Source of the DNA: Octopus sinensis
Lineage: Eukaryota
Assembly (NCBI RefSeq): GCF_006345805.1
Contig: NC_043002.1
Location: 99,138,001-99,202,000, forward strand
Length of the DNA stretch: 64,000 nt
Direction: 5' to 3'
Every line of letters starts with the position of its first letter. Position 1 is the stretch's first letter. The notes beneath the pieces were generated by a model. The model searched no databases, was not told where the DNA came from, and was given only the letters and a program-made list of their open reading frames with translations. Position numbers and translations under genes: made by a program. This document shows, piece by piece, positions 10,000 to 64,000 of this stretch.

Positions 10000-10675
10000 T
10001 AATTATTAGCGACAGAAACAGTATTAATACCAAGGCAATCCTTATATCTGACTTTGGAATTGAGAAACCTTGAGAACTCCTCTCATATAGTCGCATGGTG
10101 CTTAAAAAGAAACTTATCGACAATATCGCGTTTTCTTTTATGTATCCTTTTATGCATCATGCCTCCATATGAAAGGACCTCTCAATGTGTATAACGAGGC
10201 ATTCGATGGTCTATCAAAGCAATTATTAGCAACAGAACTAGTATTGGTACAAAAAGCAATCTTTTTTTTTATCCAACTTAACGTAGGTATGTTGATGTTC
10301 TAGCAAAATACCTACGTTAAGTTGGATAAAAGATTGCATTTATGTATCAATACTAATTCTGCTGCTAATGATTTGTTTTAATAAACGTTTAGTTTATTTC
10401 TAACATTAGTGCCTGAATAGTGACTGCAATTCTATTTATCGTTGACAGTGAGGTTTGGCTAGTATACGGCGAGCGGACAGCTGTCAATGAAGAGACGAAG
10501 TGCGTCGAAATCCTGTGATCTATCAATCCAAGCGCTCAGAGCAGACGATTCTCGTCTGTCAACAATATAAATATATGTACTTTTCTGCACCATTCGTCCA
10601 TCTGTGATGTCTTCTCAAAGCAAGTACCACACTAGTCAGCGTTCGAACAAAACATCGACATTCAGTTGGATATAT
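10000..10675. mobile_element. Fold-back repeat with a decayed hammerhead motif (Penelope-pLTR-like)
   Basis: Inverted arms about 10222-10290 and 10307-10375 (ttttatccaacttaacgtaggtat/atacctacgttaagttggataaaa); aTGAAGA-gacg-aagtg-cgtc-GAAA-tcctgtga-TC at 10487-10520. Confidence 0.5.
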
Positions 10676-17139: not shown

Positions 17140-17180
<41 letters not shown>

Positions 17181-17196
17181 TTATTATATAGAAGGA

Positions 17197-17245
17197 GCTT
17201 CTACAGGACTAGAACTGTTTCATTCAAGAGAAATCTTCAGGAAGC
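17197..17245 (-). ncRNA. Type I hammerhead ribozyme motif
   Basis: gcttc-CTGAAGA-t ttc tctt gaa t-GAAA-cag ttctagtc ctg-TA-gaagc: 5-bp helix I, helix III ACAG/CTGT. Confidence 0.75.
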
Positions 17246-17246
17246 A

Positions 17247-17295
17247 GATTCCTGAAGATTTCTCTTGAATGAAACAGTTCTAGTCCTGTAGAAGC
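17247..17295 (+). ncRNA. Type I hammerhead ribozyme motif (inverted twin)
   Basis: CTGAAGA 17252-17258; same core as the minus copy; helix I gattc/gaagc has one mismatch. Confidence 0.65.
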
Positions 17296-17379
17296 TCCTT
17301 CTATATAATAAATTAATTTTACTCTGCTATGTATTGAGTACCTTATTTACTGTGGTTAACCCCGAATCAACCCGGGACC

Positions 17380-19555: not shown

Positions 19556-19569
19556 TATATATATGTCTA

Positions 19570-20345
19570 ATTCTATCTATCTATCATTCCTTCTGTCTGT
19601 TGTTTCTCTCATTCAGCCTCTCTCCTTCTCTCTCTCTCTTTTCTTTCTTTTCTTTTCTTCTGTCTATCGGCGCTTTTACACTTACTTCGTTCATTCCAAT
19701 CTTCGTTCTTTCGTTTCCCCTCTCTCATATTTCCTGGCCTTCTCTTCATACTCACTTATCCTCCTCTTTCATTTCAGTGTGTCCCTTTCATTTTTTTCTC
19801 ACTCCATCTTAATTCTTCTATCCTTCTGCCTCTTACTCTCTCTCTTCACTCTCCCCACGTGACTGGTGTTCGGCCAAACCTGACCTTTATTTCTTGGTTC
19901 GACTACCATCCGTGCAACATCTATATTCCTCCCTGTGCCTGTCAAATCTTATGTCCCTGCCATAAGGCTTTACTTCCACACACGCCAGCTTAAATTATTT
20001 CGTCCTTAGTCGAAAGACACCTGTTGTTATTTCCTGTTATTTGCATTTGTATTTGTGTAACATTTCTCCTTTTTTTTCCGTGCTTGTTTTCGTATACATT
20101 CGCTGCTTTCTTCCAAGGAATAAAACGCTCTTAGCTTAGTTTTTCCTTGGGGCTTGCCAGATTGGAGCAATCTCGAGAATAACAAGCCGAAATTGCAAAG
20201 ATAATATGGAACTCGAGTGAGGTTAGAGAACTCTAAATGACCCGTGCTTGTTTTCATTGTATCGTCTGTCTAGATGATTTGTTGTCCCTTTTTTGTATCA
20301 CCTAACTGTCTGGATGCCTTGCATTCTTGTCCCATTTTTGTATTA
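19570..20345 (+). repeat. Interspersed repeat of the same family as 61120-61770 (pyrimidine-rich 5' part)
   Basis: Shared cacgccagct..agtcgaaagac(a/g)cctgttgttatttc..ttcgct..gctcttagc.tag blocks. Confidence 0.75.
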
Positions 20346-20641
20346 TATGTATATATATATATACGCATGGATATATATGTATACCCATAGTGGAATCAAT
20401 CTAAAGACACTAACTTGGAGCACCGTGTCTCTGGAAAGAGTTGCTGGATTTGTAATAATTTTCTTCAGCTTCTGTAATTCTCTATATCGTTAATATCTGT
20501 GTAAGTCGGATCATTTTGTATGTAAACACATATACATTTTTTGTATTTAACGTATTTACTATACTTTATATATTGATCTTCCTAACTTGCTTATCCCTAC
20601 ATTTACTGATGTATATGTACGTATGTATGTATGTATATATA

Positions 20642-21330: not shown

Positions 21331-23014
21331 TTGAAATCTTTATTATAGGCACAATGGCCCGAATGAAGAGGGGACATAACAATACAATACACAGGACATG
21401 GGGTACATATAACAAAAATACAGAAAGGATGATATGAAATGAAATATTAATAATGAATTAAATGAAATGGCTTACGAGCCCCCCAAAACTCGCAGTTTCA
21501 TTTACAATTACAATTGTACTATCTGGGGCGTTCGTCAGTAATGTAAGCGAGTAATTCATCCTGTTCTATAACGCTGGGCAAACTGTCATATCGAACGTAG
21601 TGCGCTATGCACACAGCTGTATTTGAAAACAAATTTATTAATTTATTTACCGTCTCTTTATCCACAATTGCAGCCTTTATTTGGTTATGTATATCTTCGG
21701 GTTCAATTTCACTCTCGTTAGATTTTTTCATTATCGCTAATTTTTTCTCAATTTTTTTATCCTTTTTGTACAACATTACAGCTTTGAGATTTTTTTCCTT
21801 TTGGTCTTCCTCCTTCCTTGCATGTTTTCTGACATTCTTCCACTTCTGGTGACCATTTATTCGTTTCCTCCCACGTTGAACCTTCACTCACTTTCGTTGC
21901 TGTATCTCTCCCTTCGTGCGTTCGATCCTCTGTCTCGTCGGCAGACTTCTGTTTAGGTTTTTTTCTTTTTGGGGTCTTTGGGTGGTGATTCCACCCGTGT
22001 TTGCTTTCTATCCTCTTTTTCTTCTGTTCTTTCCTTTTCTTTCTCCTTCACCAACTCGTCACCAATTTCCACAGTATCTGTTGTCACGATTTCCTCTTCC
22101 GCGTGCAATTCCACAGTCTCCTTTTCTAACTCATCTGTCAAAGTCTCCATTCCTTCCTCCAGTGTTATCATCTTCTCTTGTATTTGTCTTTGGGGACACA
22201 CATCCTTCATGTGCCCTCTGCTCCTACATTTATAACACGCTGGAGGGCTCCCCTCCACCACGACTCTCAGTCGTATCTCATCGGGGAACACCAACTCCTC
22301 CGGGATGTTATACAAATCTGGCATGGTTATGTGGACCGAAACTTGCACCGCATAACCCCACCAGTTTATTTCTTTCGACTTTTCCACCTTAAGAATGTCC
22401 ACGCTCTCTTTAGAGTTGTAGATTATTGCAGCTACTATTGTTTCGGTATCAAGTTCCAGTGAGATTTTGCTTATTCGTATCCTCACTGCTCTTTTTCCAC
22501 AATAACTAGGAAGTAAAACCCATTTTCCGATTTTAACACTGTCGTTGCGTTTCTCTTCGCTTCGTCTTCATTTTCAAAACGAATGTCTACCGTAGCGTAT
22601 TTTCTACCTGTATTGTAGAAGGTAGTTCTTCTTTTAATTTCCTGTAGACATTTCTCAATCTCTTCCACCTCTGCTACTTCTATTCTCTTTGAGACCACAT
22701 TCCAAGTTCTGTATGTTATGACTTTTTTCTCTGCTTCTTTCACTTCGTCTTCAGGTGGTGTAACCCTCAGACAGTCACCTTCCTTCTTGAAGCTGTCGTA
22801 GTATTTCCTCAAATTTTCCTTCTCGACAATTATTTCTTCCAACTGTAATTCGTTCGCAGCCAGGCCTTTGCCTGCTGCTCCCGCATAAGTTTGGGCTTGC
22901 ATACCCAACGAAAAATCCAACAATTCAACACGACGCAACAGTTTCCAACAACAAAAATCAACAAAATCCAACTCACAACCGCAATACAAAATAACCGACA
23001 CGAACACTTCCAAG
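21331..23014 (-). mobile_element. ORF1-only (half-LINE, HAL1-like) non-autonomous retroelement #1
   Basis: TSD tag(t/c)gagatctgctga at 21315-21330 and 23015-23030; AATAAA on minus at 21339-21344; only an ORF1-like reading frame, with no room for EN/RT. Confidence 0.8.
21519..22902 (-). pseudogene. Frameshifted Tx1/L1-type ORF1 (RRM-like region, CCHC zinc knuckle, charged linker, C-terminal domain)
   Basis: ORFs 22483-23013, 21953-22486 and 21519-21887 join; MQAQTYAGAA N-terminus, GRKYATVDIRF, VLLPSYCGKR across the frameshift, CYKCRSRGHMKDVC knuckle. Confidence 0.8.
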
Positions 23015-23148
23015 TAGCGAGATCTGCTGAGTGAGATGCCTGTCTAGCCTTCGCAAATATATATATTTACAGTGAAATCTATTCACTGGTCACCGTAATT
23101 GGAAATATTAAATTTCTAAATGTCTCAAAGAGACATGAGCGGTGGTGG

Positions 23149-30924: not shown

Positions 30925-30930
<6 letters not shown>

Positions 30931-31325
30931 ATAATAAAGGGCAAAATCAATTGATTATTAATTAATTTCACCAAGTGGTGTTCAGTATGTAAAAGGACCA
31001 TTCAAGGTATATTCAAAATATAGGGCTCAGTAAAATAATTTACTTTACCACATACTGAATTTTTAGAAATAGCAGCCAAAAAGTTTTTTTAGCCATTTCT
31101 ACTACTTTAAGAAAAGTCTCCCAGATAGTGTTTACTCAAAAATAATTCACGTAGATGTGGAGGGAAAGCAGCAAGATATCACATGTACAAAGATTATTTG
31201 AGACGCTCAGGTTTCTAGATTAGTCGAATTAAAACTCGACATTTCTTTCGTCAGCTCAACATTTCTTAATTTGGATTTCTAAAAATGTCAGTATGTGGTA
31301 AAGTAAATTATTTTACTGAACCCTA
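30925..31325 (-). mobile_element. Diverged relative of the 37.4-38.7 kb HHR repeat, with an internal inversion and a decayed HHR (about 31196-31259)
   Basis: Homologous blocks (ttcagtatg..gtaa..tattttact; ttgaatggtcc..catactgaacac); ttgag-CTGACGA-aaga..tcta-GAAA-c..ctcaa; inverted repeat 31028-31070 vs 31275-31318. Confidence 0.7.
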
Positions 31326-31945
31326 ATTATATAACGTAATATATATATATATATATATATAATATATGTGTGTGTATGTGGGATGGGGTGGGGTGATTGT
31401 GGGGGTGGGCGTGAATACATATATATATATTTATATATATATATATATATGTATAAATGTATGTATGTGTAGGTGTGTGTGTATGTAGTGTGCGTATGTA
31501 AGTATGCATGGGTATATCTGTGCATTTATGCGTGTGAAGGTGATTATTTTACGGAACCGTAAAGAATCTGCCATACAGTAATCACTTCGTCTACGCACTC
31601 TGAGTTTCAATCGCTCACAGATCGATTTTGACTTTTATTCTTTCATTCTTTTATTCTTATGGAATCGATAAACAAGTACCATATTGTACTAGAATATGTT
31701 CTTCTCTCTCTCTCTCTCTCTCTCTCCTCTCTCTCCCTCATTAGCTTTCACTCTCCTTCTCCCACTCTCTCTCTCTCTCACTCATTCTTTCCCTCACACT
31801 TTATCTCTTTGTCTTTCTTTCGGAGAAATAATCCGCTGTAGTCACATCCAGAATGTGATGTTCCATCAAATTTGAAAATGGCCATTACACATTATTTATA
31901 GCAAAAGAGTATCTTACTACTCTATCAAGCGGTTGAGGTACCTAA

Positions 31946-32287: not shown

Positions 32288-33753
<1,466 letters not shown>

Positions 33754-33783
33754 TAGATAGATAGATTGAAAGATAGATAGATA

Positions 33784-33847
<64 letters not shown>

Positions 33848-34217
33848 CGAGTGTATGAGCGAGGAGAAAAGGTTTTGCAGAGAATATTTAGTTAAAACAA
33901 TCCAACAAATATCTCTCAACTGCGTCTTGTTGCTCGATAAATTGCTACAGTTCAATGGTTTCGTGAGCAATTTTTTTTATTTATATATTTATCATCAGGT
34001 TGTTTTATTTGTGTGTTTGTTACCACACCGTTATCAATAGCCAGAGACTGTCAGTATATATATATTTTCAAACATCGAACTCTTTCCGGCCATTCAGGCT
34101 GGGATTCATTACCTTTTATTCAGTAAGATTTTCAATGCTCTATGTGTTGCACATCTTGGTTTCTTTTGGGACACGATATTGAGTGATATGGATTTATAGA
34201 AACGCGCCGAAATCCTA

Positions 34218-37373: not shown

Positions 37374-37868
37374 AAGGAAAACTTTAGGAACATTTCATGA
37401 TAGAGCTACAATATTTTATAATAAACTTTTGTGAGTTGAATTAAGCAAAAACTATATATGAGAGAGATTTTCTTTAAGTATTAGAAATAGCTTTAAAAAG
37501 TTTTTTAGCTGCTATTTCTAATGAGTTCAGTATGCGGCAAAGTAATTTATTTTACTAAGCCCTTTTATAATGTAATAATTTGAATTCGCCTTGAATGGTC
37601 CCTTTGCATACTGAACACTTTGTGAAATTGATTAATAATTAATTAATTTTGCCCTCAATTGTTGAAATTATAATTACCCTCTGATTAATGCTTCGGATTT
37701 TACCGAAATAAGCATAGTGTTTGATGATTTTAACCCCCGCTGGTGGAAAGGGGAGAACAGAGATTCTTCGCTTGCTTATTTGAATTTGTTGGCACTGTTA
37801 GTTACGAGCAGATCTTCGAAAGGTATGTTCTTATTTTCAGTGTTTCCAAATCCAAACCAAGGAATTTC

Positions 37869-37920
37869 TGAGCTGATGATAGAAGTGTTGTTTTGACTAA
37901 TCTTGAAACGTACGTTCTCA
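37869..37920 (+). ncRNA. Minimal type I hammerhead ribozyme
   Basis: tgag-CTGATGA-t aga..tct t-GAAA-cgtacg-TT-ctca; palindromic helix III ACGTACGT. Confidence 0.75.
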
Positions 37921-38408
37921 AATAACCTTAGCATTTGATTTTTCGATGTCCTTACCCCCAAACTTGTGAGTTGAATTAAGCAAACACTATATATGAGAGA
38001 GATTTTCTTTAAGTATGAAATAGCTTTAAAAAGTTTTTTAGCTGCTATTTCTAATGATTCAGTATGCGGCAAAGTAATTTATTTTACTAAGCCCTTTTTA
38101 TATAATGTAATAATTTGAATTCGCCTTGAATGGTCCCTTTGCATACTGAACACTTGGTGAAATTGATTAATAATTAATTAATTTTGCCCTCAATTGTTGA
38201 AATTATAATTAATCTCCCTCTGATTAATGCTTCGGATTTTACCGAAATAAGCATAGTGTTTGATGATTTTAACCCACGCTGGTGGAAAGGGGAGAACAGA
38301 GATTCTTCGCTTGCTTATTTGAATTTGTTGGCACTGTTAGTTACGAGCAGATCTTCGAAAGGGTATGTTCTTATTTTCAGTGTTTCCCAATCCAAACCAA
38401 GGAATTTC

Positions 38409-38460
38409 TGAGCTGATGATAGAAGTGTTGTTTTGACTAATCTTGAAACGTACGTTCTCA
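38409..38460 (+). ncRNA. Minimal type I hammerhead ribozyme (tandem copy)
   Basis: Identical to 37869-37920. Confidence 0.75.
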
Positions 38461-38743
38461 AATAACCTTAGCATTTGATTTTTCGATGTCCTTACCCCCA
38501 ACTTTTTTGTGAGTCGAATTAAGCAAACACTATATATGAGAGAGATTTTCTTTAAGTATTAGAAATAGCTTTAAAAAAGTTTTTTAGCTGCTATTTCTAA
38601 TGAGTTCAGTATGCGGCAAAGTAATTTATTTTACTAGCCCTTTTATATAATGTAATAATTTGAATTCGCCTTGAATGGTCCCTTTGCATACTGACACTTG
38701 GTGAAATTGATTAATAATTAACTAATTTTGCCCTCAATTGTTG

Positions 38744-38821
<78 letters not shown>

Positions 38822-40235: not shown

Positions 40236-42298
40236 CCAGAATGCAACACTAGTTGGTCTGGACTGTTACAGTGAGCAGATGTGAGTTTCGGCTCCGCGAA
40301 TAGAAAAAAAGAACAAAAAGAAAAATTGTCAATTATGGCTCGCTATAACGAGCAAAATACTGGTTTCTCATCACCGTAACGGTGAATTGAGAAATTTTTT
40401 GAAAATTTTTCTTGTGAATTCTAGTGGGCGTATCTCGCCAGAAAAATAAGAATAAGCCATTTGGATTACCTTTTTGGAGTACCTTTTTGGAGTATTATAC
40501 AAAGGATTCCCTGTCTGTGCTATTTGTGAGGTTTTTCCTTTACTTTTCTCTTCTATTTTTTCTTTCTTTCTAAATTTTGGTTCATTCTTTTCATTATTTT
40601 AATTTCAGTTTCCTCCCCTCCTCTTTTATTTTGTTTTATTTTTATTCGGTTTAATTTTTTGGCAGAATGTCTTTTGAACTACTTTTGAACTGTTTTTTGA
40701 CATGGCAGAGAAGGAACTTAAAAAGAAAAACTCTGTCTTAGAGTGGGAAATTAACCCGCCTAAGCAATGGTTAAAAGATATGGAGGAGAAGATGATGGTA
40801 CTTAGAACGTATTCTAAAGTTCTTAATTCCATCACCGTCTTCCCAAAACAAGTCATAAAAAATGAACTTTTGAAAAAAGAACATTTGTCCTCTGTAAAAT
40901 ATATATCCCGTGGTGTAAAACATGCAACCGTATGGTTGCTGTTTGACAACGGGGAAAAGGCTCGCCAGTTTGCGAGTCAGCCTTTAGAAAGCAAGGAAAT
41001 TCTGTTTCTCCCGTCATATTGCGGAAGAAAATTAATACGAGCCTGGGTATGTGGGCTCCCCCCGGGCACCGAAGCGGATTGGATTGAAGATACTGTCCGA
41101 CGGGGACTGGGGGATGGCGGTCCCAGGCTCTTAAATGTAAGAGTATTGCCGGCGTTCGATTGGGAAGTGTCAAAAGCGATTTTGACCCTGTGGACCCCAT
41201 CGGCCGCAACAGAACTGGTTTTTCCAGATTTCTTGAAAATGGCTGGCTGCAGGCATCCGGTGATACTTGAGGGATGTCCCCCAAAGTGTCACTTGTGCCT
41301 GCAGCCAGGCCACATTAAAAGGAACTGCCCCCAGGACCATGGTATGGTCCTGGAACAGTCACTACATGCCATCACCCCTACCCGGTCAAAGGGAGAGGTG
41401 GATGTGGTCGAGGAGGCTTCAGCCTCCTCAACTCAAAAAAATTAAAAGGAGAAGGCGGGCAACAATAGTTGCCCGCCGAAGGAACCTAAGGCTTCGGAGG
41501 CGGGGGAGAGTCTCGGACAAAGCGGAAGAGCTCCACTCTCCCGAAGCCAGGAAGAAAAGAAAAAAATGATGGAAGAAGAACGGGTCATCTCAGCGGGGAG
41601 ATGATGTGCCGACTGCATGCCGAAGTTGTGCCACCCACGGTGGAAGAAATCACCCCCACCCTTAAAGATGATCAATTAATTACATTTTTCTACAAGGGCG
41701 GGGAGGTGGAAAAAATAGTAGAAGAACATAAAGAAACAGTAGATATGCCCTTCACACGGGATCCCGAATGGCCTCCGCAGATAGCTGTGGAGGTCATAAG
41801 TTTTCCCTTGTGGGAAAGGCTTAAAGGATTTGGGGAGGAGTGTCGCATATGGCCGGGTGGCCCTAACACGACTTACATGTCCTACATGAGTGAGGCATGG
41901 GAAATGGCGGGATACAGGAACTGAAGCGGCATTGAAGATAATGATGAATATATCGATGGATATATCGAAGAGTAGGAGGTGAAAGACCCTCGTTACTGGG
42001 TTTGAAACCTCATCTTATTGGATTATTTTGTAGTGGTTTATAACCTCAATTTTGTGCTTTAAGAAAGAAAAAAAAAGAAAACATGTTAAGTAAGAGGTTT
42101 TAGTGCCTCCTCCTTGTAAGAGGTTTGAAACCTCATATTGATTAAAAAAAAAAAGAAAATATGTTTTCGAGAAAAATCCAATCGGCGGGTGTTGTTTTTC
42201 GTCTCTCATTTATTCATTATATTTCATTTTCATTCATTAATGTATTTGTACAGCCCGCAAAGCTCTTTGTATTGTCTATATGACAAATCTGTGAAATA
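40236..42298 (+). mobile_element. ORF1-only (half-LINE, HAL1-like) non-autonomous retroelement #2
   Basis: TSD aagtag(c/t)ttgcttac at 40221-40235 and 42299-42313; AATAAA at 42295-42300 abuts the TSD; no ORF2 remnants. Confidence 0.82.
40702..41924 (+). pseudogene. Frameshifted Tx1/L1-type ORF1 with CCHC zinc knuckle
   Basis: ORF 40702-41445 has GVKHATVWLLF, LFLPSYCGRK and CHLCLQPGHIKRNC; it continues after frameshifts into 41601-41924. Confidence 0.82.
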
Positions 42299-43406: not shown

Positions 43407-43737
43407 ATCTGCGTTGCAATAACTTGGATGCTTTATCAGGGTTGAAGAAGCGATGATTTTCAAGAACACTATGACAATATCAGCACCATAACGAAGAAAT
43501 CATTTATTCATTCATTTCATTCACTAGTATATATGTCACTCCATCTGTAGAAATCCACTCTTCAACTCCTTCCAGCATCATCTCGTTGGTACTGGAATAT
43601 TTTGGAGGCAGAAGACATTATAGACCGTCGTACTAAGATTGCAACTGCGGCTAAAAAGCATTTTTCTTTTATTCGGAATACGAGGGTTGGCTGAAAAATC
43701 CATAGGCTGACTATGAAGGAGTGATGCTTGAGCATCA

Positions 43738-44361
43738 TTTCAACTCTTCTTATTCATAAGTATATATAAATTTCAACTCTTCTTATTCATAAGTATATAT
43801 AAATTTCAACTCATCTTATTCATAAGTATATATAAATTTCAACTCTTCTTATTCATAAGTATATATAAATTTCAACTCTTCTTATTCATAAGTATATATA
43901 AATTTTAACTCTTCTCATTCATAAGTATATATAAATTTCAACTCTTGTTATTCATAAGTATATATAAATTTCAACTCTTCTTATTCATAAGTATATATAA
44001 ATTTCAACTCATCTTATTCATAAGTATATATAAATTTCAACTCTTCTTATTCATAAGTATATACAAATTTTAACTCTTCTTATTCATAAGTATATATAAA
44101 TTTCAACTCTTCTTATTCATAAGTATATACAAATTTCAACTCTTCTTATTCATAAGTATATATAAATTTTAACTCTTCTTATTCATAAGTATATATAAAT
44201 TTCAACTCATCTTATTCATAAGTATATATAAATTTCAACTCTTCTTATTCATAAGTATATACAAATTTTAACTCTTCTTATTCATAAGTATATATAAATT
44301 TCAACTCTTCTTATTCATAAGTATATATAAATTTCAACTCTTCTTATTCATAAGTATATAT
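43738..44361. repeat. Minisatellite, 19 x 33 bp (tttcaactcttcttattcataagtatatataaa)
   Basis: Units start every 33 bp from 43738 to 44332. Confidence 0.97.
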
Positions 44362-47461: not shown

Positions 47462-47510
<49 letters not shown>

Positions 47511-47511
<1 letters not shown>

Positions 47512-48368
47512 TATAAGAGAGCGACCACTATGTGGTCTACTCTAGCACTAAAAATAGATCCATTATTATTTTATTAATAGCGAAACAATTGTCCCGAACA
47601 AATTTGAATTTTTGTTATGTTCATTTACCCTGTCTGCGCCAGTAGTTGTGCTAATATTCACCGGATACATTTTTTATGTAGCTGAAGCCCAATGGATCTA
47701 TTTTTAGTGCTAGAGTAGACCACATAGTGGTCGCTCTCTTATATTTATATATAAAATGTATGAAAATCCGGGTTTCATATGCACTAAGCCACTAGGTGTT
47801 AAATGGATGTACTATTAAATTAGTATAAAAAAATTTCTCACCCTTATTGGTTGATTGTAACTATGCTACATTTAATTTTGGATGTAGTATCTGTTTCAGT
47901 GCGTGTTGGCGGGCTAAGACAGGGGCACTTAAACTATAGCAGCGAATGCAATTGGCTGAACCACACGTGCGTTTGTCGTGGTGGTGAAGTCTAGGGTGCG
48001 GTCGAGTTAATTGTATTCTGAATGGGTTCGGCTGAGGAGCTACAAATAAATGTATATTATGTGAGTAAAATTACATAATTTATTAATTTATTAATAGCGA
48101 AACAATTGTCCCGAACTAATTTGAATTTTTGTTATGTTTATTTGCCCTGTCTGCGCCAGTAGTTGTGCTAATATTCACCGGAGACATTTTTTTATGTGGC
48201 TGAAGCCCAATGGATCTATTTTTAGTGCTAGAGTAGACCACATAGTGGTCGCTCGCTTATATTTATATATAAAATGTATGAAAATCCGGGTATCATATGC
48301 ACTAAGCCACTAGGTGTTAAATGGATGTACTATTAAATTAGTATAAAAATGTCCCACCCTTATTGGTT
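47511..48368 (+). mobile_element. Retrozyme/Penelope-pLTR-like element: about 1.55 x 517-bp units plus a 5' inverted segment, within (TA)n
   Basis: GAAAcaattgtcccgaac at 47582 and 48099 (period 517); 47511-47564 is the reverse complement of about 47691-47744. Confidence 0.85.
48026..48116 (+). ncRNA. Minimal type I hammerhead ribozyme with a canonical core
   Basis: gttcgg-CTGAGGA-gcta..tagc-GAAA-caattg-TC-ccgaac: perfect 6-bp helix I, G10.1-C11.1 pair, palindromic helix III ACAATTGT, GUC. Confidence 0.9.
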
Positions 48369-48382
48369 TATATATATATATA

Positions 48383-54342: not shown

Positions 54343-54488
54343 AGGACTGGCTGTGTGGTAAGAAGCTTACTTCGCAACCACATGGTTTCGGGTTCAGTTC
54401 CACTGCATGGCAACTTGGGCTAGTGTCATCCACTATAGCATTGGGCCGACTACAGCCTTGTGAGTGAATTTGTGAGACGGCAGCATAG

Positions 54489-54546
<58 letters not shown>

Positions 54547-54791
54547 ATGTGTGTGTGTGTGTTTGTGTGTGTTTATGTATTTGTGTGTCTGTTTTTGTCC
54601 CTCCATCATCGCTTGATAACCAACGTTGTTGGGTTTACCTCCCCGTGTCTTAGCGGTTCAGCAATAGTGACCGATAGAATAACATATTACAACGAATATG
54701 TTTTGGCGTCGATTTGTTCGACTAAATGCGGTGCTCCAACACGGCCGGAGTCAATTGACAGAAGCAGGTAAAAGAATAAAAGTATAAAAGA

Positions 54792-54858
<67 letters not shown>

Positions 54859-55100
54859 ATGTGTGTGTGTGTGTTTGTGTGTGTTTATGTATTTGTGTGT
54901 CTGTTTTTGTCCCTCCATCATCGCTTGATAACCAACGTTGTTGGGTTTACCTCCCCGTGTCTTAGCGGTTCAGCAATAGTGACCGATAGAATAACATATT
55001 ACAACGAATATGTTTTGGCGTCGATTTGTTCGACTAAATGCGGTGCTCCAACACGGCCGGAGTCAATTGACAGAAGCAGGTAAAAGAATAAAAGTATAAA
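54343..55100 (+). mobile_element. SINE family A with an exact 312-bp tandem duplication of its 3' half
   Basis: ctccatcatcgcttgataacc at 54601 and 54913. Confidence 0.85.
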
Positions 55101-55101
55101 A

Positions 55102-55132
<31 letters not shown>

Positions 55133-58986: not shown

Positions 58987-59121
58987 GAGTAATGCCTCGA
59001 TATACGAGTTAATTCGTTCCCGGAGAGCGCTCGTAAAGCGAAAACTCGTAAACAAAATAAACTCCTAAAATGTAAACCTGGGATCCCATAATGTGGGTCC
59101 TCGTAAAGTGAGGTATTACTG
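58987..59121. mobile_element. Pogo/Tigger-like MITE (135 bp)
   Basis: TA-flanked TIRs gagtaatgcctcgatatacgag / ctcgtaaagtgaggtattactg. Confidence 0.7.
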
Positions 59122-59129
59122 TATATATA

Positions 59130-59182
<53 letters not shown>

Positions 59183-59275
59183 TGTATATATAATATAGAT
59201 GTAAGTATGTACATATATGTATGAATATATGCATATGTTTTATATATATATATGTATGTGTGTATGCATGTATAA

Positions 59276-59337
<62 letters not shown>

Positions 59338-59716
59338 GATATATATTATATAAATGGAATAAAAACGCAATAGAGGGTATTAAAACGTTCGGACAGATAG
59401 ATGATACAAAGGTGGACAAGAGAAACAACAATTAGAAGCACAGGTAAAAACGATGAATCTTCTTGGCTTCCTTCATCACTCAAGTCCCAAAAGTCACGAC
59501 CATTTCGGGCAGTTACGCTTGAGATGGATCGATCTGGTTACCTGCCAAAAACTCTAGGCTAAGAGCACTAGACTCGTTTGTAAGAAAGCTAGCGAATATG
59601 TACGGCAACAAAGACAAAAGGAAAATAAATAAACAAAAAGCGCAGAGTATGGTACACAATTACGAATACAAACAAGAAATAACAACAGGCGTCTTTCGAC
59701 TGAGAAAGAATCAAAT
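59122..59716 (-). repeat. Left arm of an inverted duplication of about 600 bp (right arm about 61400-61978)
   Basis: Reverse-complement match that includes the (TA)n tracts. Confidence 0.9.
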
Positions 59717-61098
59717 CGATGCTTGCTACAGGAGGACTGGTAACCATTACAATTTGTAGCGGCGAAAGGTCTGGACGTTGTTTTCTGAGGCTGACCAAAG
59801 AATTTTTATTTTTAGATATAAATGATGTACTCAAGTGTAGTTATGTTTTTAGCTTGTGCTTTTTCCATGATCATACGTGAGTATTTTATTTATATCCCAT
59901 CGAAATTTCTACTGAAGAAGGAATATATCTTTTTTTATAAGATTAAGTCCGAAATTGATTCATATAGATGATAACGAAATTTAAATTTTCTAAAGGTTAG
60001 TTGCCCGTTTTCAGTTTCAATTTTCCTGTAACAAGCGGATTATAAGTGGATAAAACAGTGTATTTGGCTTTAGAATAACCCTCTTTAGCCCTTAATTATA
60101 TGATGTATATTGCAACCGTAACGGTTTTTTTAAATATACTGCCCACGCTTCCTGATGAATTCCTTTGCTGTAGAGTAAGGGACTTCATCCTATATTGCTT
60201 AGCTAGTAAACTCGATGCTTGCTACAGGAGGACTGGTAACCATTACAATTTGTAGCGGCGAAAGGTCTGGACGTTGTTTTCTGAGGCTGACCAAAGAATT
60301 TTTATTTTTCAGATATAATGATGTACTCAAGTGTAGTTATGTTTTTACTTGTGCTTTTTCCATGATCATACGTGAGTATTTTATTTTATTTATATCCCAT
60401 CGAAATTTCTACTGAAGAAGAATATATCTTTTTTTATAAGATTAAGTCCGAAATTGATTCAATATAGAGATAACGAAATTTAAATTTTCTAAAGGTTAGT
60501 TGCCCGTTTTCAGTTTCAATTTTCCTGTAACAAGCGGATTATAAGTGGATAAAACAGTTGTATTTGGCTTTAGAATAACCCTCTTTAGCCCTTAATTATA
60601 TGATGTATATTGCAACCGTAACGGTTTTTTTAAATATACTGCCCACGCTTCCTGATGAATTCCTTTGCTGTAGAGTAAGGGACTTCATCCTATATTGCTT
60701 AGTAGTAAACTCGATGCTTGCTACAGGAGGACTGGTAACCATTACAATTTGTAGCGGCGAAAGGTCTGGACGTTGTTTTCTGAGGCTGACCAAAGAATTT
60801 TTATTTTTAGATATAAATGATGTACTCAAGTGTAGTTATGTTTTTAGCTTGTGCTTTTTCCATGATCATACGTGAGTATTTTATTTATATCCCATCGAAA
60901 TTTCTACTGAAGAAGGAATATATCTTTTTTTATAAGATTAAGTCCGAAATTGATTCAATATAGAGATAACGAAATTTAAATTTTCTAAAGGTTAGTTGCC
61001 CGTTTTCAGTTTCAATTTTCCTGTAACAAGCGGATTATAAGTGGATAAAACAGTGTATTTGGCTTTAGAATAACCCTCTTTAGCCCTTAATTATATGA
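59716..61098 (+). mobile_element. Tandem array of about 2.8 x 497-bp non-coding units, one hammerhead per unit (retrozyme-like)
   Basis: tcgatgcttgctacagg at 59716, 60212 and 60711; CTGAAGA at 59912, 60412 and 60907. Confidence 0.85.
60900..60967 (+). ncRNA. Type I hammerhead ribozyme (best of three tandem copies)
   Basis: atttcta-CTGAAGA-a gga..tcc-GAAA-ttgattcaa-TA-tagagat; near-palindromic helix III ATTGA-T-TCAAT, 7-bp helix I. Confidence 0.72.
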
Positions 61099-61119
61099 TA
61101 TATATATATATATATATGT

Positions 61120-61762
61120 ATTCCCCCTCTCATTTTCCTTCTTTTTTCCCGCTCCCCCATCCTCATATTCCTTGGCCCTCTCTTTAACTCTCACTATTTC
61201 CCACACGGTTATCCCCCCTTTACCTTTCTCTTAGTCTCGGATTTTTTCTAATCCTTCAGGCCCGCTGCCTCCTACCCATTTCTCCTCCTGCCCGGGCAGC
61301 CATGGTCTTTCGTTTTTGGACTGACTGCCGACCGACAACACCTCGTGTCCGTCTCCCATTTTCCTGCCTTTAGGCTTTCACTTTATACACGCCAGCTCAA
61401 TTTGATTCTTTCTCAGTCGAAAGACGCCTGTTGTTATTTCTTGTTTGTATTCGTAATTGTGTACCATGCTCTGCGCTTTTTGTTTATTTATTTTCCTTTT
61501 TGTCTTTGTTGCCGTACATATTCGCTAGCTTTCTTACAAACGAGTCTAGTGCTCTTAGCCTAGAGTTTTTGGCAGGTAACCAGATCGATCCATCTCAAGC
61601 GTAACTGCCCGAAATGGTCGTGACTTTTGGGACTTGAGTGATGAAAGGAAGCCAAGAAGATTCATCGTTTTTACCTGTGCTTCTAATTGTTGTTTCTCTT
61701 GTCCACCTTTGTATCATCTATCTGTCCGAACGTTTTAATACCCTCTATTGCGTTTTTATTCC

Positions 61763-61770
<8 letters not shown>
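61120..61770 (+). repeat. Interspersed repeat, same family as 19570-20345
   Basis: Shared sequence blocks. Confidence 0.75.
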
Positions 61771-61811
<41 letters not shown>

Positions 61812-61920
61812 ATATATACATTTATACATGCATACACACATACATATATATATATATAAAACATATGCATATATTCATACATATATGTACATACTTACAT
61901 CTATATGTATATATACATGC

Positions 61921-61980
<60 letters not shown>

Positions 61981-62639: not shown

Positions 62640-64000
62640 ACATATACCTCGTTTTGTGGTACACTGTTATTACGACGAACCTCGTCTAATATGTGGCACT
62701 TGGTGAAGAATGGAGTTTGATAATAGCTACTCTCATTTACACCTCTTGCCGTGAGGTAGGTTCATATGGGACTCTTGACAGGAAGATGTCCAGCTTTGAT
62801 TTAAAAACCGCTACATCTACTTTGTAAAGTTCCTCAGACTCTTTGGGAGAATATTAAAACGCTGTGGGCCCTTGAAACATAGGCTGTTGCAGAAGCTGGT
62901 CCTGAAGCGTGATGGCATTGCTGGGATCTTTGGCACTATGCAGTGTCGTCCCGTTCTAGCATTGGTGTAGCTTACAATGCCAAAATTTGGCACAATTCCT
63001 TCCATGATCTTCCAGACATATATTACTGCATACCTCTCCCGTCTTCTCTCCAGGGAGTAGAGTCTTAGCTGTTTCAACCTTTCCCAGTAGCTGAGCTGTT
63101 GCAAAGAGATGATCTTCTTTGTAAATCTTCTCTGGATTGCTTCAAGGTCCGCTGTTAATTTTACACTGGTGGATGACCATAGCTGTGAGCAGTAATCCAA
63201 GCGACTGAGGACGAATGTCCGCCAGAAGACCATCATGGCTTCCTTATCTCTGGTTCTGAATGTTCTTAGGATCCACCCAGCCAGTCGTCTGCACTTTGTC
63301 GCCATCTTGGCAATGTGCACTGGGAAAGATGTATCATCATTCATGTCGATACCCAGGTCTCTCACAGACTTAGGCTCTGGGTTTGAAATTCCCTGTGGAC
63401 CGGTGTATCCTGTAAGTTTAATATTGAGTTTTGGATGCTGGTAGCGCAGGGCCTGGAATTTTTCAGCATTAAACTGCATATTATTATCCTCAGCCCATCT
63501 GTAGATTGAGTGCAACTCCTGCTGCAGGTGTGCAACATCGCTGGGGTTCTGTATTTTCTGCGAGACTTTCGTATCGTCTGCATAGCTGGCCAGAGTGGCT
63601 ATCCGGGCATTTGAGGGCATATCTGAGAGGGCCACTATAAAAAGCAGTGGTCCCAAGACAGTGCCCTGTGGAACACCGCTCACTATTTGTGTGTTCATAG
63701 AGGTGGCTCCATTAACCACTACTGCCTGACTCCTATCTTTCAGGAAGTCATGCAACCATACTCCAAGTTTTCCAGCTATGCCAAGGTCACGTAATTTGTG
63801 GCTTATCATACCATGATCCACCTTGTCAAAAGCTTTTGCAAAATCAAGGTAGATTACGTCCACATTTGATTTGTTGAGTAACTGCCTCAACACCCAGTCA
63901 TAATGCTGTAAGAGCTGGGTCAGGCAGCTCCTACCTGGTCGAAAACCATGCTGGGTATCACTCAGCAAGTTATTTTCCTCAAGGAATGCGATTTGTTTCT
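62640..64000 (-). mobile_element. CR1/L2-group LINE, reverse transcriptase region (runs off the window end)
   Basis: ORF 62817-63968: QHGFRPGRSC, YLDFAKAFDKVDH, SGVPQGTVLGPLLF, YADD, RDLGI, LYSLERRRER; frameshifted tail FKSKLDIFLSRVP. Confidence 0.95.

Follow-up and report, generated by a model that had tools for sequence, protein, structure and literature searches.

How a short tandem array with a hammerhead ribozyme came to lie in a TA-rich stretch of octopus DNA, fused at its 5' end to an inverted copy of the DNA that follows its 3' end, is the question raised by positions 59716-61099 of a 64,000-nucleotide stretch of the Octopus sinensis genome (contig NC_043002.1, positions 99,138,001 to 99,202,000 of the forward strand). 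This stretch is referred to as the window, and its numbering is used throughout; it has the character of animal DNA, AT-rich and dense in microsatellites. Recognition and insertion of retrozymes have so far been deduced from their co-occurrence with Penelope-like elements (PLEs), while the ends of an array provide direct junction evidence. The array itself (array 3) adds one more family to a published class, and its value lies in its ends. The (TA)n join, the common 3' hairpin and motif and the inverted flank duplicate, like the class of the element, go beyond the initial annotation. The features on which the analysis draws are collected in Table 1.

Table 1. Coordinates of array 3, its flanks and the other hammerhead elements of the window.
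Feature	Position	Strand	Description
Element 4 (comparator)	30928..31338	-	truncated 73-78% relative of array 1; hammerhead-like motif; inverted 5' piece; ends in (TA)n
Array 1 (comparator)	37429..38751	+	~540-bp unit; hammerheads with cuts predicted after 37916 and 38456; 3' end at (TA)n
Array 2 (comparator)	47505..48371	+	517-bp unit; core of the hammerhead at 48032; 5' end with 60 nt of the array's own sequence in inverted orientation; 3' end at (TA)n
Inverted duplicate (A) of 61400-61977	59123..59716	-	fused head-to-head to 5' end of array 3; ends in TA tract
Array 3, unit 1	59716..60211	+	496 bp; hammerhead core at 59912; two 1-nt indels within the motif as assembled
Array 3, unit 2	60212..60710	+	499 bp; hammerhead core at 60412; predicted cut after 60464
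Array 3, unit 3 (partial)	60711..61099	+	~389 bp
Intact type I hammerhead of unit 3	60895..60972	+	descriptor scan; shuffle test; found unchanged in contigs from three runs
Hairpin closed by GG..CC (61061-61085), then CUUAAU	61061..61091	+	candidate start signal for reverse transcription; putative function
(TA)n tract at 3' end of array 3	61098..61117	.	putative target site
Older dispersed repeat (B + A')	61120..61765	+	3' of the array; 70%-identical relative at 19956-20193
Source A' with interrupted TA microsatellite	61400..61977	+	origin of the inverted duplicate

Array 3 consists of near-identical units with one intact hammerhead

In the initial annotation the array had been described as 2.8 near-identical units of about 497 bp. 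This was confirmed by TRF on the window, which returned a repeat at 59716-61105 with a period of 496, 2.8 copies and 97% matches, and by unit alignments, in which the ~497-bp units followed each other head to tail over 59716-61099. Units 1 and 2 differ by nine indels (1 nt in eight cases, 5 nt in the other) and by no substitution, and units 1 and 3 by two internal 1-nt indels, the sole substitution lying at the junction at the end of the array. The suggestion that the mostly 1-nt differences might be sequencing errors found support as well, with the indels missing from public contigs. None of the indels by which hammerheads 1 and 2 are damaged appears in the variant tables of four runs at a threshold of 5%, so that both units probably contain sequencing errors of an unpolished assembly.

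When the two strands of the window were scanned with a descriptor, matches were obtained at two sites, 48032 and 60907, each within a tandem array, and none of 5000 dinucleotide shuffles of the unit yielded such a motif under either the strict or the relaxed descriptor. In unit 3, helix I (60900-06/60961-67) comprises 7 bp plus a 3-bp extension, and the core CUGAAGA (60907-60913) is followed by an extra A (60914). Stem II (60915-45) is built of 3 + 5 bp around an internal loop, with GGA and UCC paired at 60915-17/60943-45, and GAAA (60946-49) stands 3' of it. Stem III (60949-52/60956-59) has 4 bp and a 3-nt loop and is palindromic about the central U. The cleavage triplet is AUA with a predicted cut after A60960, and the AUA triplet and the extra A after the core, both previously proposed, thus hold for unit 3. 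The count of three hammerheads stands for one of them only: the motif is intact in unit 3, which alone passed the scan, whereas as assembled unit 1 lacks one A in stem III and carries an extra T in helix I and in unit 2 a G is missing from the base of stem II, so that both are damaged as written and fail the scan.

PLE-type hammerheads are marked by a nucleotide that lies between 9 and 10.1, a G10.1-C11.1 pair and a palindromic 15.2-16.2/loop 3 region (PMC4209133). All of these marks are found in unit 3 (A60914, G60915-C60945 and the palindromic 60949-59). Judged by its sequence, the type I hammerhead of array 3 shows the features typical of PLE ribozymes, and its cleavage is predicted. A plant LTR retrozyme, with a type III hammerhead in its LTRs, was rejected as an identity for the array, the ribozyme being of type I and open at helix I.

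The hammerhead fold of the unit-3 motif has -10.7 kcal/mol compared with -14.0 kcal/mol for the MFE fold, which is 3.3 kcal/mol more stable and pairs the core with stem III; this sequestering of the core counts against activity. The strand of stem III forms a self-duplex between copies with -6.7 kcal/mol, a self-pairing that would permit cleavage as a dimer. No hammerhead family of Rfam was matched in array 3, even at E<=10. The canonical hammerhead of array 2 was missed too, and the absence of a match therefore reflects the scope of the models. Matches to miRNAs from the same Rfam search were rejected as TA-repeat noise. A 20-nt hammerhead pattern had no match in metagenome contigs and none in viral contigs.

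The unit is non-coding, strongly self-paired and present in independent runs

The unit is non-coding and strongly self-paired. With a GC content of 33%, it folds at -132.5 kcal/mol (z -5.21; none of 100 shuffles was equally stable), and it is 62% paired when folded as a circle. Its longest Met-started ORF has 91 aa and no Pfam match, and a frame of 98 codons at 60579-60872, likewise without a Pfam match, was treated as a chance occurrence. No ORF for a PLE reverse transcriptase (RT) or a GIY-YIG endonuclease was found in the array or among the 99 ORFs of the window that were scanned. A back-splice-style junction search, which had been proposed as a check for circular RNA, cannot work here, since the junction of the circle is identical in sequence to the place where two units meet in the genome.

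Half or more of the words sampled from the unit were present in 20 of the 24 listed runs (10 studies, 7 coded organism labels), and the run with the largest share may itself be the source of the window. Contigs of four of the 24 runs (X2, X3, X8 and X19) were compared with 60602-61720; that X3 and X19 are RNA runs is a guess, and none of the listed runs with the unit is recorded as RNA. In X3, a 494-nt contig extends over almost all of the unit and shows 1 difference. A 414-nt contig of X2 shows none, short X2 contigs also lie over the hammerhead, and X19 covers 60877-61088 with 1 difference. Contigs of these three runs carry the unit-3 hammerhead and cross the join between unit end and unit start. 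Run contigs indicate presence only, with no joint listed for the inverted 5' junction and the TA join skipped as a repeat. In X8, 2692 contigs from all identity bands were placed on 60602-61720, many of them diverged. The summed depth of X2 and X3 rises ~6- to 14-fold over the 3' half of the hammerhead, and one X3 contig has kept CUGAAGA and the extra A with a different stem II, so that the ribozyme would be common to otherwise diverged relatives. We read the depth peak and the X3 variant contig as related subfamilies that conserve the ribozyme. With diverged contigs in X8 and variant subfamilies in X3, multiple genomic copies are present.

Array 3 belongs with the non-LTR retrozymes

Array 3 can be assigned with high confidence to the non-autonomous non-LTR retrozymes. 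It is a head-to-tail repeat (2.8 x 496 bp) with a type I hammerhead below -5 kcal/mol, a GC content below 50% and a non-coding, highly self-paired monomer. By these sequence features it is a new family within the published class, and the insertion would be a recent one. Target-site duplications of the class, when present, exceed 4 bp; in array 3 both ends lie in TA tracts.

Non-coding tandems with one type I hammerhead per unit, low GC, a highly self-paired monomer and dispersed copies are shared with the metazoan non-LTR retrozymes as described in the accessible text of PMC7229834 and 10.64898/2026.07.22.740005. The first described circles have 170-400 nt and the repeats 150-450 bp (PMC7229834), and the unit of array 3, with 497 nt, lies above these circles but within the repeat range of 51-972 bp given in 10.64898/2026.07.22.740005, where non-LTR retrozymes are derived from PLE pLTRs. 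Array 3 further differs from the metazoan retrozymes in its long stem II with an internal loop and its 4-bp stem III, and in the putative (TA)n targeting, shared 3'-end signal and inverted flank duplication, which the accessible parts of these sources do not describe. Newt satellite 2 and the axolotl Rtz331 and Rtz353 (PMC7229834) are also type I hammerhead tandems with a palindromic helix III that allows dimer cleavage; by their description, on which this comparison is based, array 3 is distinguished by arrays that are short and dispersed, by the greater length of its unit and by the higher stability of its stem III. In giant squid, 235 hammerhead-1 matches are reported (PMC6962438).

Among the PLEs themselves, the pLTR hammerheads are minimal in the account of PMC4209133, whereas array 3 has a full stem III, a 7-bp helix I and no RT-EN ORF. 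The EN+ PLEs Poseidon, Neptune and Naiad, as far as they are covered in the available text of PMC11167929, 10.1101/2021.04.23.441226 and PMC3846280, resemble array 3 in partial tandems, 5' truncation, an inverted 5' copy, AT-rich or (TA)n targets and an internal start of reverse transcription. In contrast to them, array 3 is non-coding and its inverted 5' piece is a copy of neighbouring non-retrozyme DNA and not of the element itself; Naiads are also without hammerheads, which array 3 has. A literature search, thin on subscription journals and supplements, returned no paper on octopus retrozymes, and within the same limits none on a shared 3'-end signal of retrozymes or on inverted flank duplication by them.

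The 3' ends of four hammerhead elements share a hairpin and a (TA)n join

Array 3 is one of four hammerhead elements in the window, which fall into three families with no significant BLAST similarity to one another; the tandem of array 2 itself is placed at 47549-48371. The claim that array 3 is unrelated in sequence to the other arrays held for BLAST (best E 0.16, against array 2; nothing at E<=1 against array 1) but not for the 3' ends, where a motif is common to the arrays. In all four elements the 3' end is joined to (TA)n, and this join lies 10-19 nt past a hairpin closed by GG..CC and followed by CUYWWU. From the cleavage site the join is 138 nt distant in array 3, 259 nt in array 2 and 287 nt in array 1, and the element end is thus not a ribozyme cut. 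Within each monomer CCCTYAWT occurs exactly once, directly before the 3' join, and in each element its first two Cs close the hairpin that is opened by GG.

When triples of random cut points were aligned, 13 of 3000 did as well as the observed ends and 3 of 3000 did so with offsets of <=5 nt; this is a post hoc test on three independent families, with window and word size picked after the motif had been seen. The hairpin is significantly stable in array 1, array 2 and element 4 (z -3.4, -2.4 and -2.7) and weak in array 3 (z -1.2; -1.21). Between element 4 and unit 2 of array 1 the 13-bp stem has two differing positions, with pairing kept at both, and a pair-breaking change is present in two of the three array-1 copies. 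The motif was also found in 5 of 100 TA-tract flanks and in 20 of 4266 background tiles, a comparison that is circular and thus no test of the motif. As a possible fifth case, CCCTCTAT near the end of A' was considered and dropped, as it has no GG..CC hairpin; by eye, CCCTCTAT is not retained in the older relative near 20330.

According to the accessible text of PMC11167929, PLE reverse transcription starts internally in a stem-loop after AT-rich DNA has been cut, and 10.1101/2021.04.23.441226 describes a (TA)n bias in some PLE clades and lists tandem and inverted structures as a PLE trait. For the elements of this one window, the balance tips slightly towards the GG..CC hairpin with CUYWWU acting as a shared start signal for reverse transcription. 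Any good assembly would allow a genome-wide test of a common start signal, of (TA)n targeting and of 5' inversions in the style of PLEs.

The 5' end of array 3 carries an inverted duplicate of its flank

The inverted duplicate and the flank downstream of the array are 94.9% identical over 603 nt (blastn). In the unique part (61401-61765) they differ by 1 substitution and two 1-nt indels, and the interrupted microsatellite is present in the inverted copy as well. Both copies have the same letter at 17 of 17 checked positions at which X8 has another (17 of the 35 X8 variant rows outside the unit were checked, and X8 may be another population). The near-identity, the copied microsatellite and the shared letters indicate that it was this flank itself which was copied, and recently. 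Where the switch took place, 8 of 11 positions agree between the cDNA end and the flank, with one gap, and 44 of 4000 random pairs were as good.

Inverted 5' pieces are found in three of the four hammerhead elements. Those of array 2 and element 4 are shorter and derived from the elements themselves, and array 1 has no inverted piece at its 5' end. A single fold-back mechanism would explain all three pieces: the end of the cDNA would pair with its own strand and be extended as far as an AT-rich stretch, which would then be joined to the TA tract upstream. For array 3, with the anatomy of one window as the basis, a fold-back on target DNA is moderately favoured over transduction of the flank.

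In element 4, the inverted 5' piece retains bases that are missing from the forward copy. On its left, the inverted duplicate of array 3 adjoins a short MITE-like element (58987-59121; inverted ends seen by eye). The dispersed family to which 61120-61765 and 19560-20350 belong is unclassified, bounded by TA tracts and abundant in X8; no hammerhead was found in the family or in its B + A' copy next to the array.

A model for the insertion and its alternatives

Overall, the locus is probably a recent retrozyme insertion that arose by multimeric reverse transcription with an internal start and a fold-back at the 5' end. A multimeric transcript would cleave itself after AUA, probably aided by dimer pairing via the palindromic stem III, and the monomer would be ligated into a circle. 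A Penelope-like RT/endonuclease acting in trans would cut a (TA)n tract, and reverse transcription would start internally, 12-14 nt 3' of the GG..CC hairpin and CUUAAU and ~138 nt past the cleavage site, helped by a few nucleotides of AT microhomology. It would then run 2.8 times round the template. By means of an imperfect match of 11 nt, the 3' end of the cDNA would fold back onto the flank downstream, at a distance of ~300 nt past the priming site, copy 600 bp of this flank and rejoin the upstream target end in a TA tract, which would leave the inverted duplicate.

In the model of PMC7229834 for non-LTR retrozymes, a small circular RNA is reverse-transcribed in rolling-circle fashion, and by analogy a circular template is likely for array 3. 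A PLE is very likely to have mobilised the array in trans, again by analogy with known systems. It speaks against the model that no PLE ORF was seen among the 99 ORFs scanned and that PLEs could insert in vitro without cleavage by the hammerhead (PMC11167929). Rolling-circle-like reverse transcription had already been proposed for this array from the sequence. The anatomy agrees with it, as the array has 2.8 units without substitutions and neither end lies at a cleavage site, but growth at the DNA level or a linear multimer could also have produced such an array.

Growth at the DNA level would mean that a solo PLE pLTR-like fragment was inserted once and became a tandem by unequal crossing-over or slippage, with the hammerhead as a passenger and no circular RNA involved. 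Such a route has been proposed in 10.64898/2026.07.22.740005, where eight of nine predicted Xenopus retrozyme dimers tested in vitro failed to cleave, a result that also speaks against activity of array 3, and the absence of substitutions between units fits a recent DNA duplication too. We regard it as unlikely for array 3, given that three unrelated families in one window all form short, non-integer tandems with the same end anatomy, that the unit join was found in contigs of independent runs and that the whole unit is strongly self-paired as RNA.

It is similarly doubtful that 59123-61977 was inserted as a whole, in a single PLE-style event, from a linear transcript reading through a donor (array, TA, B, A'), by which the flank would have been transduced. 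Both target ends would then prime at the 3' end of the transcript and give rise to two copies, one long and the other inverted and 5'-truncated. The transcript would have had to escape cleavage at three hammerheads, and its copying would have started in a plain TA tract without a hairpin (the end of A' folds weakly, z -0.65), whereas the 3' end of the array holds the same position relative to the hairpin as in the other elements. Inverted repeats around a whole insertion are nevertheless a PLE structure (10.1101/2021.04.23.441226), PLEs capture host DNA (PMC3846280), and the shared private alleles and the junction microhomology would fit read-through equally well. It is very improbable that noisy long reads or the assembly produced the tandem count or the inverted duplicate as an artefact: the error profile is rich in indels and the region is not polished, but the unit and its end-to-start join are present in independent contigs, a folded-back read would have mirrored the array as well, which is not mirrored, and two further elements have inverted 5' pieces of smaller size.

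Extended beyond array 3, the preferred reading of an internal start and a fold-back would be that unrelated retrozyme families share a cis-signal which places a Penelope-type RT 10-19 nt downstream at (TA)n, and that DNA fold-back duplicates host flank. We put this forward tentatively, as an idea with less than an even chance of being correct, in which both the shared 3' signal and the inverted 5' duplicate come from one window. If true, it would define the recognition element that links retrozymes to their mobiliser, and the 5' inversions of PLEs would be DNA-templated. An inverted duplicate of host DNA would further show that retrozymes generate local structural variants.

Other elements of the window

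The only RT near array 3, an open frame of 393 aa on the minus strand (62820-63998; RVT_1, E 3.6e-24), runs off the end of the window and is apparently young. We take it to belong to a LINE-type clade, and it was rejected as the likely mobiliser for this reason.

In the array-1 hammerhead the triplet is GUU, stem III is short and perfectly palindromic, and stem II has an extra U or a U-U mismatch at its base. The hammerhead of array 2 is canonical and its stem II very long and AU-rich; the 5' truncation of array 2 lies inside this stem. Two gag-like ORFs with zinc knuckles (below the cut-off) and one zf-RVT domain were seen at 40678-41442 (+), 21956-23043 (-) and 33160-33891 (-). The SINE-like repeats of the window presumably resemble octopus SINEs. 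The window also has a minisatellite with 18.9 copies of 33 bp, a tandem duplication of 312 bp and two stretches inverted on themselves (43737-44361, 54485-55129, 17175-17317 and 10209-10386).
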